Below are positions 16,947 through 56,340 of a stretch of 64,000 nucleotides of DNA, one piece after another (position 1 is the stretch's first letter; every line of letters begins with the position of its first letter). The position numbers were made by a program, and so were the translations under genes. The notes beneath the pieces were generated by a model. The model was not told where the DNA came from and did not search any database. It saw only the letters and a program-made list of their open reading frames with translations. The stretch spans positions 130,758,001 to 130,822,000 of the forward strand of contig OX597817.1 in the NCBI GenBank assembly GCA_951406725.2, read 5' to 3'. This DNA is from Octopus vulgaris (lineage: Eukaryota).

Positions 16947-16996
<50 letters not shown>

Positions 16997-16997
<1 letters not shown>

Positions 16998-17416
16998 TTA
17001 TCGCCGTACTAATATGGCAATCTTATAAAAATAAGAAAAAAGCTGTCCGCTTATTAGCTCCATGAGGCCATCGCCTTAAGTTAGCTATTCGATACACAAA
17101 CTGTATCCATATAACCTTCGAACAAGGGAGGTCAGTCGCTCCACACTCCTTGACCGACAGCTACAGTTTGTGTATCGAATAGCTAACTTAAGGCGATGGC
17201 CTCATGGAGCTAATAAGCGGACAGCTTTTTCTTATTTTTATAAGAATGCCATATTAGTATGGCGATAACTATTAATTTCCAGGAACGCTGCCGTAATCTC
17301 TTTTAGAGAGACTTAGTAATTTTAATATTTCTATTATTGAAAACAAGTGGATGTATTCCACAGAAACTAGGTAAATAAAACCTTCGAACAGAGATAGTCA
17401 GAAGCGACACCTACTG
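16997..17416 (+). mobile_element. HHR retrozyme-like element, 5' portion with inverted 5' segment (host of Tx1 copy B)
   Basis: 16997-17105 is an inverted repeat of 17162-17270. 17162-17337 repeats at 22884-23060. Flanked by (TA)n. Confidence 0.85.
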
Positions 17417-17634
17417 ATTTTTCCTTGGATTACGTCGGATTATTTTACGCTGTAAGCTGTTATGTTAGTTCGTTCTGTTCTGGATTTACACGTACAGTTT
17501 TTGGATTATTAACTTGTGGAACAAAGTAATTTTCACCCTTCGGGGTAGAAAATTTCTTTTTATATATGAACTATTAACTCAGTGTGGAATTAACTTTTAT
17601 CTTGTCTCTTGTGACAAGTCACTTGCATTTTAAT

Positions 17635-19126
17635 ATGGATCTTGACTTAACGTCAAATTCTGATTTTCCCGAGATGGGAGAAGTTATAAATAATGGAAAG
17701 CAAAAGGATACAAAGGAGAAACAAAGTTTTTCGGAAGCCGTTGGAGGCAATGTTATAGAACTGGAAGTAGCAATGGGGGATCTCTTCAAGTTCAGAAAGT
17801 TCATACAAAGGAATGGAGAAGAAACGAGAATAATACCGCCCCCTGACACCTTACAAGCAATCCGTGAGAAGACGGTAATTTATAAGGTATATAATATTAA
17901 GGAAAAAAAGATTGCAGATGTAAAAAATGAATTGGTAGAACGGTGCATGGCACCAATTTGGAACAAGGTTCGCTATGTTGGCCGAGGAGTGAGAAGCGCT
18001 GCTATTGAAGCGCATTTCGAGTCGGCTAGCATAGCGAAGGAAATTTCAACTCAAACGTTGAAGAGTGCAGACATCCTGTTGCTGCCCACGTACTTAGGGC
18101 GCAGAACAGCTAAGGTAACAATAGAGGATATACCAACAGGTTACGATGTAATGTGGGCAGCAACAGCGGTCGTATTCGACGTAGAAGAGAAATTAAACAT
18201 TTTAAACATGAGGATGAAAGAGGCAAAATTTTGGAAAGGTCAGCAGCTTGAAATGATCGTTCAAGCTGACAATGCAACGCTGGAGAGTTTGCCAGACAGG
18301 GTCTTCGAGGGGGATGGACACACTATGCGGGTATCGGTGGAGGGACGTAGGCCCAGATGTTTCAAATGTGGGCAGAAGGGTCACGTCCGCTCAGAGTGCA
18401 AAAAAGAAAAAACCCGTTAATGCCCCCATTCAAACCGCTGTGGAGAACAAAGCAGACATCACAGCAACAACAAAAGAGAATACCCGGAAAAAGCAAAATG
18501 AAAGTCAAAAGGAGGAAAAGAAAATGAATGGAAAACAAAACGAAAACGAAAACGAGGGGGAAAATAATTTATCAAATGGAAAAGAACTGGAAGTAATGGA
18601 ATATACGACTGTAACCAACAAAAGGAAGAAATCCAATACCCCGGACTCCCCACCCCAAACAAAAAGAAAAACAAACGCAGAAGAACAACACAAAAAAATT
18701 ATCCAATCCCACCCCGCTGGCACTACTTTTGTAGGCCAGCATTTCATTAAACCCCAGCCCCCAACTTTAAAAGAATTAAAAAAAACCGATAGGTGCATTG
18801 CTTATAACACAAAAAACGAGAGAGTAGTTTGGTACATAAAAGCGAAACCAAACATAAAATGTTTCAAATCATCGGAAAAAAACCCGGATTGGAGGTATGC
18901 GAAGGTTGGAGAGGAGGAATGGAAGGAGAGACTCTTCCAACTACACGTGAGGGACAACCTGATTAAAGATGTCACACAAGAGGTGATAGCTGGAAAATTG
19001 AATATTAGCCCGGCAGCCACTCCATCCCAGAGCCCGGTGGCAACGCCGGTTAAATGCCCAGCAACAACGGAGAGTGTGGGGGAGGCAGGCAGACAAAAGC
19101 TGCCATGCTCCCTCTCACAACCGTAA
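17635..19126 (+). pseudogene. Tx1 ORF1 (gag-like, CCHC zinc knuckle), split by a +1 frameshift at ~18410
   Basis: ORF 17584-18420 (first ATG MDLDL at 17635) contains CFKCGQKGHVRSEC. Continuation in ORF 18272-19126 ends LPCSLSQP*, homologous to copy C. Confidence 0.85.
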
Positions 19127-19150
19127 GTAACAAACTTTCTTCATTCATCG

Positions 19151-22100
19151 ATGATTAAGTTGGGCTGTATAAATGTGCGTGGAATGGGGTCGAAATGGAA
19201 ACAGGCTTGCTTGCTGGACGACCTCAGGACACACAGAATAGATGTAGCCATTGTCACCGAGTCCAAAATGAGAGGAACCCAAGCGTTCTCGCATCTTCTC
19301 AATGGTTACGAGAAATTTATTTCTCCTAGCCGAGGAGGAAGTGCAGGCGTGACAGTCCTTATCAGGAAGAACTTGGACTTACAGGTAAGTACTGTCTTTA
19401 TGGACCCAGAAGGTAGGCTGGTTGTCCTCGATGTAACTCACGTGAGTAAGCAGTCCTTCAGGTTGGTAGCTGTTTATGCTCCTAATGAGGGTAGGCAGAC
19501 TGGTTTTTATCGGAACTTGGAGCACTTTTTAGTGACGTCTAAAACGGTAGTATTGGTAGGGGATTTCAACACTATCATCGATGCGCGGATAGATAGTGTG
19601 GGCTCGTCTGATAGAAGGGAGAAATTCTTGCCTCAAGGGTCTACTGACGAGCTTTAATCTAGTAGATCGGTTTCGAATGGATGAGCCGAGCATTCCACAG
19701 TGGACGTGGAGTAACAATGACGGCTCACGCAGATCGTATATAGATAGGGTATTTGTTAAAGAACGAGATAGGAATAGCATTAGCTGTCCACAATTTTGTA
19801 TTGTGCCTTACACGGATCACAAATTAGTGACGTGTGAGGTACATGTAGATAAATGCCATAAACAGGGACCCGGATACTGGAAAATGAACAAGTCTATTTT
19901 GGCTTGTGAAGCTTTCCGTAACCGGATTATGGAATTAGTCCAGAGGGCATTATGTGGCACCATCATTAATAATAGATGGTGGATCGCCCTCAAAAGAGCC
20001 ATCCGTTTGGAGTCCACTAGATTTAGCAACCAGCTAAGTTTAGATAGGTCTAGAATAGAGGGCGATTTAGTTAAGAACTTAGACGAGGCAATGGGATCTG
20101 GCTGTGCATCTAGAGTGTTAGCAGAGAGAACGATCTTGTACCGTCACCTCAATGCCAAGCATGAAGGATGTAGAGTCAGAGCTAAGCTACGTGCAGTGAA
20201 ACGAGAAGGTATTAATGATGCCGGATGGGCACGTCATGTGGAGAGTCAGAAGGGCAAAAAGTCCTCTACTAAGTCTTTAACTGACGAACAGGGACGCAAA
20301 ATCTATGGACAGGAGGAGATACAGAAGGTCTTTCAACAGCATTTCGCTCGGTTGTTTGGGGAGGGCGATCCACTCGAGCGAGGAGAGGACTTACAGAACT
20401 TCCTAGCTGGTGGGCCTCGGCTCTTGCCACGCAGAGCGGAACGCTGTGAAGGACCGATTACTCCTGCGGAGGTAAGAGGGGTTTTGGCTGAATGCGCCCG
20501 GGAAAAGTCGCCGGGACTGGATGGTCTGCCCTATGAGTTTTATTGTTGTATGCCGGACTTGTTCGGGGACATACTGGCAAGCGTCTACGCAAACTGGCAA
20601 CAGAATGGGAGGATTCCCAGTTCTGTGAGCCGGGGAGTTGTGACGCTGATCCAGAAAGACCCGAGCAAGGGGGATAATATTAGTAATTATAGGCCCATAA
20701 CTCTACTTAATGTAGAGTTAAAGATTTTGGCCAAGGTGTTAGCAGAAAAGTTGAAGGTCGTCATGGAAAAACTTGTGGGAAAGGCACAGACTTGTGCAAT
20801 CCCAGGCAGGTCGATCGAAGATAATCTTCACCTTCTACGCTACACTATAGACAGGGTTGGGCAATTAGCCGGCAAAGTAAAGCATTTGATAGGGTAGATC
20901 ATCAGTACCTGGCGACGGTTCTCGAAGCGGCTGGGCTAGGCCCTGACTTTCGCGGGTGGATATCAGCTATGTACAGCGGTATCAAGTCCACAGTCCACAT
21001 AAACGGTTACTTAACGGAACCGTTTTCGATTAAGCGTTCAGTTCGTCAAGGATGTCCCTTGTCCCCTCTCCTGTACGTTTTGGCTCTTGAGCCATTGCTG
21101 CGGGAGTTGGAGACGGTGAGATGCAATCCTAATGAAATCGGATGCGGTAAGTCTGTTTCTGCGTATGCGGATGACGTCACCTTCATCGTGTCCAACGAAG
21201 CACAACTAACTCGTGTAGAAGGTGCTCTCCGAAGATACGAAGCGGTGGCTGGGGCAAAAGTTAGCAAGGACAAGTCCACTGGTTTGCGCCTCGGCACCTG
21301 GAGGAACAAGCCGATATCGTCCAGTGTTGTTGGACACTGGACAGATGGTCCTGTTAAATTGCTTGGAGTTTGGTTTGGTTCAGACTCCCAGACGGAGAAA
21401 AATTGGAGCGAGGTAGTGACCAAGGTAGGAGCCATAGTTCGGGAGTGGTCCGGAAGGCATCTTTCCTTGAAAGGGAGGGCGGAGGTGGAACAGGTGTTTA
21501 TAGCATCTGTAATCACCTATCGCCTGACTGTCGTGCCTTGCCCCGATTTGTGGCTAAGCAAGTTGGATCGACTCCTTTTCCGCTTTTTGTGGAAGGGAGG
21601 AAAGCCACTTGTAAGGCGCTCCGTGTGTTGCCAGGAACCACTAAAGGGTGGGCTGGGTATACCTTGGTTAATGATGCGCAGGCATGCGCTGAGACTGAGA
21701 CATCTCTGGTTTCACCTGGAAGGTGATAAGGTGTGGAGTCCGCTGGCAGATAATTTCTTCCCGCAACCGGACTCTATGGAGAGATTTAAACCCGGTTTCA
21801 TTAAAAGACGGAATCTGACTTTATGGCAGAAAGAGTGCCGACAGGCACTCTGGCTGATCCACAAGATAGGCAAAGCCGGCTGCGGGAATACCTCCTCGAC
21901 ATTTTATAGAAGGATGGTAGAGGCAAAAAATGACGACATCCTAAGAGGGACTCTGGGGTTCGATGAGGATCAACTATCCGACCTGTTTAAGAAGACTTTC
22001 AAGCCGGGGTATTTGGACAATTACCAAAAATCCCTGACTTGGCAGTGCTATAGGAATGCTCTACCTGTTCGCGATAAGTTATATAGGCATGGAATGTCAG

Positions 22101-22520
22101 TGCCACCGACATGTCCAAGATGTAGGTTGGACGATGAAACCGTCCAGCACGCTTTTGTACATTGTCAGGAGCTCTCAGGCTTAATAAGTTACGTAGAACA
22201 CGTCTTGTCGCATCTGGGACGAGTACAGCTATCGGCTGGTTCTATAATGAAGATGATACCGCCAGCTGGACTCTCAAAGGAAGGTGAGGCTTGTTTTCAC
22301 TGTACGGTGGCAGTACTGAAAGAGTGTGTGTGGAGAACTAGATTGGAAGGTTTGGTGTGAGGATCCTTTGTCTCTGGATATGGTATGTTAAAATACTTCA
22401 GATACCATCTAAAGAGCAAGATGGATTTAGAGAAGAGGAACCTGACACAGAAAAAGTATGTGAATCGATGGAAGGATGTGATAAAAAAGGTGGGTGTGAG
22501 TAACCCTGCTTGGTCATCAT
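19151..22520 (+). pseudogene. Tx1 ORF2 (APE endonuclease, reverse transcriptase, CCHC finger), disrupted
   Basis: MIKLGCINVRG, VYAPN, VGDFN, SPGLDGLPYEFY, YADD, CPRC..ETVQHAFVHC. Frameshift near 19615, 28-bp deletion at ~20876, premature stop at 22358-22360. Confidence 0.92.
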
Positions 22521-22758
22521 GAAGGGAGAAAATAGTCTCTGGGCTCTTAGGCTGTCGGGTAAGAATCCTGACTGTGATATACCTAGCTGGCCAAAATCAT
22601 TTTTAATTTAAAAAAAAAAGGAGAAAAGTAAAGTCTAGTATCATAATCAATAATCAACATATGTAAATATCAAACGAACAACGTAAACTTTTTGTAATTA
22701 TGTTTTGTATTGTAATGTACTATCTCTGTAAGATTTTTATAATCATAATAAAGATTTT

Positions 22759-23060
22759 AGAAGCGACACCTACTGGGTCTGACTACGCTGCATTGACAAA
22801 GGGCAAATACCCTGAAACGCGTCTGTAGCTGTCGGTCAAGTAGTGTGGAGCGACTGACCTCCCTTGTTCGAAGGTTATATGGATACAGTTTGTGTATCGA
22901 ATAGCTAACTTAAGGCGATGGCCTCATGGAGCTAATAAGCGGACAGCTTTTTTCTTATTTTTATAAGAATGCCATATTAGTATGGCGATAACTATTAATT
23001 TCCAGGAACGCTGCCGTAATCTCTTTTAGAGAGACTTAGTAATTTTAATATTTCTATTAT
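22759..23060 (+). mobile_element. HHR retrozyme-like element, 3' portion (monomer ~363 nt once the Tx1 insertion is removed)
   Basis: Continues the 17162-17416 unit, contains the HHR, repeats 17162-17337 at 22884-23060 and ends in (TA)n. Confidence 0.85.
22779..22835 (+). ncRNA. Type I hammerhead ribozyme, U3-A8 core variant (UUGACAA)
   Basis: Stem I CUGAC-(UAC)-GCUGCA / UGUAGC-U-GUCGG; stem II AGGG-CAAAUA-CCCU; GAAA at 22814; minimal palindromic stem III ACGCGU; predicted cleavage after C22823. Confidence 0.88.
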
Positions 23061-25189: not shown

Positions 25190-25224
25190 GTTTAACGTTT
25201 CGAGCGGAGCTCTTCGTCGGAAAC
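25190..25224 (-). ncRNA. Minimal type I hammerhead motif (core CCGACGA) in a Penelope-like repeat, 25045-25300
   Basis: Minus strand guuu-CCGACGA-aGAGC-ucc-GCUC-GAAA-CGUU-aaac with palindromic AACGUU. Paralog at 27157 has a canonical core. Confidence 0.65.
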
Positions 25225-27978: not shown

Positions 27979-28015
<37 letters not shown>

Positions 28016-28019
28016 TAAC

Positions 28020-28500
28020 AATATAGGGTGAAATTAATTAATTTGGAATAATTATTAATTACACCAAGTAGATTTCGGCATGTAAAAGCCTCATTCGAGG
28101 AAAATTTAAGTAATACTAAGCAATTAAGGGTTTAGCAACGAATTGCCTCACCACACACCGAATTTAGAAATAGCAGTCAAAGAGTTATAGCTATTCTTTC
28201 TACTAAAAGGGAGATCTCAGTAAAAACACAGCACTTGAAAGGCAAACACAGACAGATAAGAGAGAATGAAATGACGGCAATCTATCATACAATTTTAAGT
28301 CACCTACGGACGTACGTTTCGAAATTAAGTTTTAGGAAAGCATAAGAATTAGATAATTATATCTTACCCAACTTCTTACCTGTCTGTGTTTGCCTTTCAA
28401 GTGGTGTGTTTTTACTGAGATCTCCCTTTTAGTAGAAAGAATAGCTATAACTCTTTGACTGCTATTTCTAAATTCGGTGTGTGGTGAGGCAATTCGTTGC

Positions 28501-28531: not shown

Positions 28532-28624
28532 TGTTGCTACACATCGCTGGTCACATTGCGCATTGTTTTAGCCTTCAAATGACACCGCCCCGCTGGCTAA
28601 GCGAGTAGGCCAATATATATATAT

Positions 28625-29844
28625 ATTATTTTTATTTTATCGCAATTTGATTTGTTTACATATTTCTCGATAAATTATGAGCGCTAGACGATATACCAGA
28701 AATCCCTAGTTTTGTCGGGACGTTCGGAGTCTGCGCAGTGATATGATTAGTTAGAGAGAGTAAATCATTAGAAGCACATGCTTCTAGTGAGTTAGGATCT
28801 CAGAAAAACAGGGCTCTCACTGACGAATTCTCCCTGAGCAAATAAATTATCTTTATTGCTGAAAAGAAAGAAACTGCAGTCTGAGAATAACCGAGTTAGT
28901 AAATGTTTTTATCTTCATTTCACTTAATTTATCAAGCTTCTGTGTTCCTAGCACATATTTCGCCTTAATGTACTGATATATGGAAAATATATGGCTTGTG
29001 TTAGTAATACCAGCGATTATAATTATTTTTATTTTATCGCAATTTGATTTGTTTACATATTTCTCGATAAATTATGAGCGCTAGACGATATACCAGAAAT
29101 CCCTAGTTTTGTCGGGACGTTCGGAGTCTGCGCAGTGATATGATTAGTTAGAGAGAGTAAATCATTAGAAGCACATGCTTCTAGTGAGTTAGGATCTCAG
29201 AAAAACAGGGCTCTCACTGACGAATTCTCCCTGAGCAAATAAATTATCGTTATTGCTGAAAAGAAAGAAACTGCAGTCTGAGAATAACCGAGTTAGTAAA
29301 TGTTTTTATCTTCATTTCACTTAATTTATCAAGCTTCTGTGTTCCTAGCACATATTTCGCCTTAATGTACTGATATATGGAAAATATATGGCTTGTGTTA
29401 GTAATACCAGCGATTATAATTATTTTTATTTTATCGCAATTTGATTTGTTTACATATTTCTCGATAAATTATGAGCGCTAGACGATATACCAGAAATCCC
29501 TAGTTTTGTCGGGACGTTCGGAGTCTGCGCAGTGATATGATTAGTTAGAGAGAGTAAATCATTAGAAGCACATGCTTCTAGTGAGTTAGGATCTCAGAAA
29601 AACAGGGCTCTCACTGACGAATTCTCCCTGAGCAAATAAATTATCGTTATTGCTGAAAAGAAAGAAACTGCAGTCTGAGAATAACCGAGTTAGTAAATGT
29701 TTTTATCTTCATTTCACTTAATTTATCAAGCTTCTGTGTTCCTAGCACATATTTCGCCTTAATGTACTGATATATGGAAAATATATGGCTTGTGTTAGTA
29801 ATACCAGCGATTATAATTATTTTTATTTTATCGCAATTTGATTT

Positions 29845-29848
<4 letters not shown>
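28625..29848 (+). mobile_element. Retrozyme-like tandem array: three 397-bp monomers plus ~33 bp, one HHR per monomer
   Basis: Units start at 28625, 29022, 29419 and 29816; CUGACGA cores at 28820, 29217 and 29614; flanked by (TA)n. Confidence 0.92.
28815..28886 (+). ncRNA. Type I hammerhead ribozyme (further copies at 29212-29283 and 29609-29680)
   Basis: UCUCA-CUGACGA-long stem II (uucu/agaa; agcaaauaa/uuauugcu)-GAAA-CUGCA-GUC-UGAGA; palindromic ACUGCAGU stem III; predicted cleavage after C28881. Confidence 0.85.
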
Positions 29849-29896
<48 letters not shown>

Positions 29897-29899
<3 letters not shown>

Positions 29900-56258: not shown

Positions 56259-56340
56259 TTCCTGCTGAGGACGATTTCACCTAGCGAGTATATGTTATTT
56301 TATTTGCTAAACTAAAATCAGAAACCAATTGGTCCAGGAA
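56259..56340 (+). ncRNA. Type I hammerhead ribozyme
   Basis: UUCCUG-CUGAGGA-long stem II (gauuu/aaauc)-GAAA-CCAAUUG-GUC-CAGGAA; palindromic ACCAAUUGGU stem III; predicted cleavage after C56334. Confidence 0.82.

Follow-up and report, generated by a model that had tools for sequence, protein, structure and literature searches.

The 397-bp tandem repeat analysed here is very probably a non-LTR retrozyme and represents a new family of an element class that is itself already known. Its copies occupy over 100 dispersed sites of the octopus genome and bear signs of retrotransposition, i.e. a fixed 3' end adjoining (TA)n and ragged 5' ends. We consider it reasonably probable (roughly 0.6) that they are generated by the full retrozyme mechanism, with a circular RNA as template and an enzyme of the Penelope type, probably Neptune. 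The existence of retrozymes, their circular RNAs and a proposed link with Penelope-like elements are established in the accessible parts of earlier reports (PMC7229834; bioRxiv 10.64898/2026.07.22.740005; PMC4209133; 10.1101/2021.04.23.441226; PMC7761336; PMC3846280).

The array and its hammerhead motifs

The array lies within the window (the whole 64-kb stretch of DNA that was analysed) and contains the following features, with unit positions numbered from the predicted cleavage site:

28625..29849, + strand: tandem array, 3.09 copies of the 397-bp unit (self-comparison at offset 397 and TRF)
about unit position 137-144, + strand: 5' end of the array, variable (truncated)
unit position 174, + strand: 3' end of the array, fixed
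28815..28886, + strand: type I hammerhead motif 1 (stem I, CUGACGA, long stem II, GAAAC-UGCA-GUC), predicted cut after 28881, T at 28852
29212..29283, + strand: type I hammerhead motif 2, predicted cut after 29278, private G at 29249
29609..29680, + strand: type I hammerhead motif 3, predicted cut after 29675, private G at 29646
29205..29233, + strand: predicted loop 1-loop 2 pseudoknot of motif 2, formed by CAGGG and CCCUG and present likewise in both other units (covariation)
28882..29278, + strand: predicted excisable 397-nt monomer 1, with the same sequence as monomer 2 (putative release)
29279..29675, + strand: predicted excisable 397-nt monomer 2, reference unit (putative release)
29845..29854, + strand: fixed 3' junction and putative priming site, GTTTA of the unit into (TA)n; internal sequence there GTTTACATAT
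29848..29897, no strand: (TA)25 microsatellite, 3' target (TRF)
about 28613..28626, no strand: 5' junction, a short (TA)n tract adjoining a truncated piece of another repeat (read directly)

The periodic run is 1225 bp long, and each position from 28625 to 29452 is identical to that 397 bp downstream, save at 28852. TRF delimits the array at 28620-29854 (period 397, 3.1 copies, 99% matches), so that the approximately 3.08 near-perfect copies counted in an earlier note on this DNA are confirmed by both methods. The single substitution recorded there is real, with the correction that, judged against other arrays, T at 28852 represents the family state, while the G at the counterpart positions 29249 and 29646 is a derived, private change present in two units. 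This G occurs genome-wide only at its own two places and is absent from the three sequencing runs covering 29249.

The unit has no coding capacity, as previously noted (longest stop-free frames of 37 codons on the plus and 72 codons on the minus strand), and the GC content of the array's 2-kb bin is 33%. No LTR arrangement was found in a search that left out PBS and PPT; patterns of pol III A and B boxes are lacking on both strands, and the unit does not classify as a tRNA-derived SINE. It shares no similarity with the Tx1-like LINEs of the window. The proposal that it belongs to a family distinct from the Tx1 hosts and the view of the array as a recent insertion both hold. The (TA)n flanks already noticed are a short run (28613-28626) and a tract of 25 units (29848-29897); since both flanks are of this kind, a target-site duplication is unreadable. 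An assembly artefact, named beforehand as a possible refutation, is unlikely, because the unit is arrayed at 39 scored places and, in one public run, 17 contigs pass into (AT)n exactly where the family has its 3' end. Upstream of the array, at 28013-28500, an element of approximately 490 bp with long inverted arms is placed between TA tracts; it is abundant in the sequencing runs compared.

The pattern CUGACGA...GAAAC-UGCA-GUC with a 5-bp stem I begins at 28820, 29217 and 29614, i.e. in all three units. The description of this motif as a canonical hammerhead is correct as regards the core, the palindromic stem III (CUGCAG) and the length of stem II, which contains an internal loop, but stem II is closed by an A.A pair and not by G-C. 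In a set of 17 motifs (two of the window and 15 of 19 fetched loci) this closure was observed seven times, which points to a trait of the clan and not to decay. Complementarity of loops 1 and 2 in these motifs was higher within a motif than across motifs (5.7 vs 4.6; permutation p 0.002, an optimistic value because the 17 motifs are related), and the loop 2 belonging to the same motif was the best or tied partner of loop 1 in 7 of 17 cases. The putative pseudoknot pairs are CAGGG/CCCUG in the 397-bp unit vs AGGUG/CACCU at window position 56265, and in one subfamily a stem I pair is changed on both sides (C334T with G2A).

Folding energies do not back the hammerhead. Its fold has -8.0 kcal/mol vs a predicted minimum of -14.1 kcal/mol (the pseudoknot being left out of the energy), and neither the local folds nor that of the 397-nt monomer (-86.8 kcal/mol, z -0.75) are better than those of shuffled sequences. 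The proportion of variable sites is 0.36 in the hammerhead core vs 0.31 in the rest of the unit. An Rfam search detected no hammerhead at either threshold, and at gathering level the 64-kb window matched no family; a manA-II match over the array was dismissed as due to chance (E 9.6). Genome-wide, the hammerhead pattern has 679 matches vs 29 for a control pattern, and the 3' half of the motif is present in 146 exact copies.

Hammerheads or hammerhead-like motifs occur elsewhere in the window as well. One with a CCGA core (25190-25220, minus strand) is located in a repeat recurring nearby, and its U4C change is also characteristic of a subfamily of the 397-bp unit. The segment 56129-56490, a distant relative, contains a hammerhead with a long stem II (at 56265). 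It has 1627 candidates genome-wide and a period of about 476 bp; its 3' end takes either of two positions, about 105 nt from each other, and partial copies in inverted orientation are present at several loci.

A fixed 3' end and evidence for internal priming

The 2.8-Gb assembly was searched for the unit, and 39 of 614 candidates were scored and grouped into 39 arrays. All except two (L036 and L054, which end elsewhere) terminate at unit position 174, that is 174 nt after the predicted cut, and continue into (TA)n. The observation that the ends of the window array do not coincide with the cleavage site holds. Start points freely permuted between loci are not found: the 3' end is constant and just the 5' ends vary. 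The exact junction of the unit with (TA)n occurs 103 times in the genome (control, 0). A further 61 junction copies, fetched regardless of length, span 18-700 bp and are nearly all TA-bounded on the 5' side; in at least six of them, as judged by eye, the 5' junction is marked by a short duplication. A sister family with a 399-bp unit (85% identity) ends at the homologous point in four of four loci.

Target-primed reverse transcription is well known to leave a fixed 3' end and ragged 5' ends as its signature. In the present case this suggests that the strand carrying the hammerhead sense served as the template. Spread of a satellite at the DNA level, with the hammerhead as an inactive relic, would agree with the lack of support from folding energies and with the local expansion described below; it is nevertheless very improbable, given a reverse-transcription signature at more than 100 dispersed sites, copies as short as 18-60 bp, and stems and a pseudoknot that covary across families.

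Transduction of 3' sequences was considered and rejected, as 97 loci share no non-simple 3' flank, although this is a weak test. Two loci approximately 600 kb apart (L204 and L205, G000:C31) have identical flanks and the same short insertion, and probably represent a duplicated segment.

The junctions themselves indicate where synthesis began. The interior of the arrays reads GTTTACATAT, whereas the junctions usually read GTTTATATAT. The internal C was kept at ten junctions, two of which share identical flanks, leaving nine independent cases against 103 with T; approximately 8% of junctions thus retain a base from inside the unit, which argues for internal priming. At comparable positions an isolated CA interruption was seen just once in 786 (Fisher p 5e-8 vs the C-keeping junctions), and the junctions retaining the C come from three subfamilies. 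In these events at least, the RNA must have run on into the unit past the priming point.

These junctions bear on a rather unlikely rival reading, which keeps the element and its target priming but assumes that the template was a linear, partly cleaved read-through transcript and that multi-unit arrays were remade not by circles but by local unequal exchange or template jumping. A (UA)n tail on such a transcript would directly explain the fixed 3' end, and would agree with the lack of 3' ends at other TA-like sites of the unit with equal 6/7 matches (94-95 and 104-106), none of which was used in 39 arrays. Retention of the C, on the other hand, requires internal priming, and the 97 loci without a shared non-simple 3' flank also speak, weakly, against a linear template. 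The unused sites mean that the choice of site needs more than microhomology.

Growth of the arrays and form of the template

Further information on the template was provided by the 5' ends, which were scored at 89 of the 103 junctions. Of these, 17 ends fall at unit positions 1-30 vs 4 at positions 368-397 (p 0.01 after adjustment for exposure), and five at positions 1-4 vs 0.9 expected (p 0.002), including those of 174-bp and 570-bp copies. This excess just past the cleavage site is moderate evidence for run-off at a cleaved RNA end. Stalling at RNA structure could also cause such a peak, and a second hot spot nearly as strong as that of the cleavage site (26 ends) is present at positions 101-140. 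Some 5' ends reach the cleavage site with one, two or three complete units already included. Such ends are not expected from a plain circle; they would require an uncleaved multimer, template jumping or pausing at the junction, and they count in favour of the linear transcript.

Sequence variants were compared in 45 arrays with overlap. As many as 246 variants occur in all copies of an array, 13 in a subset and 68 in one copy, so that each array has one haplotype. No real position-specific variant is common to different arrays, three position-matched sharings having the appearance of edge or alignment effects. A compatible longer source exists in the (incomplete) sample for 22 of 46 arrays, as the linear template would allow, and is lacking for 24, including 17 of the 18 arrays of at least 715 bp (the longest being set aside). 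Simple shortening of extant master arrays therefore does not explain the arrays. The two longest were rejected as masters, since their private fixed variants (C212G and A176T) were unseen in the other arrays examined. This, like the absence of shared position-specific variants, weighs against a linear template, with the reservation that "private" means private to the sample: two variants of L045 turned up in L207.

The homogeneity of the arrays is partly of local origin. All four arrays of roughly three units have a variant present in two of the three, and a 28-motif array of this family on C5 (L200-L201, G000:C5:112643546 to about 112654600) shows a 10-unit higher-order period (p 0.01) as well as one private variant in all 27 monomers. 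The two-of-three variants and the 10-unit period indicate that arrays also grow in place, a point on which the linear-template reading draws equally. Regeneration of arrays from a monomer fits their variants, and so does local growth.

In the window array the G is private to the locus yet present in two of three units, which would be consistent with duplication of a unit after insertion or with a switch of template. The trimer is most likely a shorter insertion that was later extended, or else the product of such a switch. We also considered that a damaged base on one circle, misread over several passes, could give the two-of-three variant; duplication is favoured in view of the 10-unit period of the 28-unit array, although such misreading may apply to the window trimer. 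An assembly effect may also lie behind this variant. Copying of the array, together with its variant pattern, from a similar array on C11 was rejected, because the latter has T throughout and a two-of-three variant of its own.

Taken together, the C-keeping junctions and the comparison of arrays with their possible sources support an RNA template that was internally primed and passed through the cleavage site. The earlier proposal of copying from a 397-nt circle is upheld to this extent, but the array is not the plain product of a circle copied unchanged three times over. Most likely the template was circular, and an uncleaved linear multimer could give the same pattern. Among 24 runs none was listed as an RNA source. 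The unit is covered by contigs of runs that may derive from RNA, one of which, of 427 nt, closes on itself with a period of 397; a tandem would look identical, and this contig was given no weight.

The candidate enzyme and the proposed mechanism

Matches to GIY-YIG are abundant in this genome (6136 candidates; a 781-codon frame in 16 of the 150 scored). Among them is a young, intact Neptune-type Penelope family (L166:1445-3787) encoding a reverse transcriptase with a C-terminal GIY-YIG and having a second open frame upstream. The same genome therefore harbours an intact Penelope-like element with a (TA)n target and an end structure like that of the retrozyme. A minimal hammerhead variant is located near the end of the element in 15 of 24 GIY-YIG loci; that of L166 is of the U3.A8 type, near the 3' end, and the L166 end is a partial tandem repeat. 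The distance from the Neptune-type cut to (TA)n is 54-74 nt in 11 loci, 86 nt in one and 106-112 nt in three. The named relatives of this element come from assemblies labelled as bivalve symbionts, which we presume them to be.

The anatomy of the ends matches and their sequence does not: a comparison of the unit with the 3' regions of 24 GIY-YIG loci, out of 6136 candidates, gave no score above shuffles and no pseudo-LTR homology. It is from the anatomy that we infer a Neptune-type partner. Inspection by eye of 12 and 19 loci revealed no Penelope frame joined to a hammerhead repeat of the clan on the same strand, so that this arrangement was discarded; L167 has an RT-like frame on the opposite strand, past a TA tract.

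It is possible, although we think it unlikely, that the retrozyme cycle is right and the enzyme comes from another TA-targeting element, which could be a Naiad, a member of some other Penelope clade, or a LINE. The absence of sequence shared with the Neptune ends is in line with this, as are the Naiads with a (TA)n bias reported in Octopus by Craig et al. (10.1101/2021.04.23.441226) and the inspection of just 25 of the 6136 GIY-YIG candidates. Naiads are without hammerheads in the available portion of that report, which together with the young, intact Neptune family and its matching ends speaks for the Neptune type. The Tx1-like LINEs of the window were rejected as partners: none resembles the unit, and the one copy examined in this respect (17417-22758) has another target, its flanks being a 17-bp duplication of a different element and not (TA)n.

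The LINE just mentioned (about 17417-22758) is inserted in a different repeat (window 16994-23060), the 17-bp direct repeats being at 17400 and 22759. At 22793 the host repeat bears a minimal hammerhead variant; it also contains a 5' piece in inverted orientation and terminates in (TA)n on the 3' side. The LINE looks like one that targets a hammerhead-bearing element.

The nearest known relatives, as far as the accessible text of Cervera and de la Pena (2020, PMC7229834) describes them, are the 350-390 bp repeats of Mytilus galloprovincialis among the animal non-LTR retrozymes. Like the octopus repeat, the retrozymes of that study are short, low-GC, non-coding, without LTRs, with a type I hammerhead in each unit, and coexist with Penelope-like elements. 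The octopus repeat also agrees with the size rule for retrozymes (units of 150-450 bp and at least two consecutive full motifs, with up to 28 elsewhere in the genome). The mussel motifs likewise lack the usual loop-loop nucleotides, and in an axolotl motif the base of stem II is mismatched, as with the A.A closure. Unlike the elements in those sections of the paper, the octopus arrays are mostly short and dispersed with the 3' end fixed at (TA)n, the motif combines a long stem II with a predicted Watson-Crick pseudoknot, and self-pairing of the monomer does not exceed that of shuffles. RNA and cleavage were demonstrated for the former, while the octopus repeat is known from sequence alone.

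Li, Clavereau and Pollet (2026; bioRxiv 10.64898/2026.07.22.740005) regard retrozymes as non-autonomous derivatives of Penelope pseudo-LTRs. Their survey, in the part available, includes no mollusc and is based on distribution and sequence homology; one of nine predicted dimers was cleaved in vitro. In contrast to their cases, the octopus repeat has no homologous pseudo-LTR among the 24 GIY-YIG loci compared, and its link with Penelope elements relies on insertion-end anatomy. Neptune and Naiad elements, in the consulted portions of two studies (10.1101/2021.04.23.441226; PMC4209133), share with it the (TA)n bias, 5' truncation and partial tandems; the Neptune terminal repeat carries a hammerhead, and copying of more than one unit from a circle was proposed. 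The octopus repeat differs from these elements in encoding nothing and in having a full-size, not a minimal, hammerhead. A literature search covering few subscription papers, and no supplements, retrieved nothing on cephalopod retrozymes or fixed priming sites of retrozyme insertions.

In the proposed mechanism, a transcript of tandem units would cut itself into 397-nt monomers, which are likely to circularise. A nicked TA strand would pair with an internal UACAUAU of the hammerhead-sense strand (6/7 matches, 174 nt past the cut), priming reverse transcription into (TA)n, likely by an enzyme of the Penelope type, probably Neptune. On linear RNA the synthesis would run off at the cleavage site, giving 174-bp copies, whereas on circular RNA it would keep going round to give multimers. 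The cDNA end would then be joined via microhomology, and units may be gained locally after insertion. At the window locus, a shorter insertion was probably followed by mutation of one unit and its duplication. The mechanism has in its favour the hammerhead in every unit, the dispersal, the 3' end fixed at (TA)n, the ragged 5' ends and the single-haplotype arrays; against it are the hammerhead fold above the minimum energy, the A.A pair of stem II, the variable core, the second 5' hot spot and the lack of homology with Neptune. More tentatively, and with odds rather against it, we suggest that the family records the entire retrozyme cycle in the genome, in that priming from nicked (TA)n by a Neptune-type reverse transcriptase takes place at one defined internal site of the circle, that the in vivo cut is recorded in the 5' ends, and that the repeat belongs to an undescribed cephalopod clan with a long stem II activated by the covarying pseudoknot.

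The return of animal retrozymes to the genome has so far been only a proposal. Penelope-like elements were named as a candidate route (PMC7229834), and the mechanism of reinsertion is said, in the accessible text of a recent preprint, to remain to be worked out (bioRxiv 10.64898/2026.07.22.740005). The 397-bp family offers testable detail in this respect: a template strand, a priming site defined to the base, a target sequence and a candidate intact enzyme. Because growth continues after insertion, tandem hammerhead arrays should not be read as pure rolling-circle products. If the more tentative reading given above is true, the intact young enzyme and the repeat, residing in one genome, would form a ready pair for reconstituting Penelope-type priming on circular RNA.
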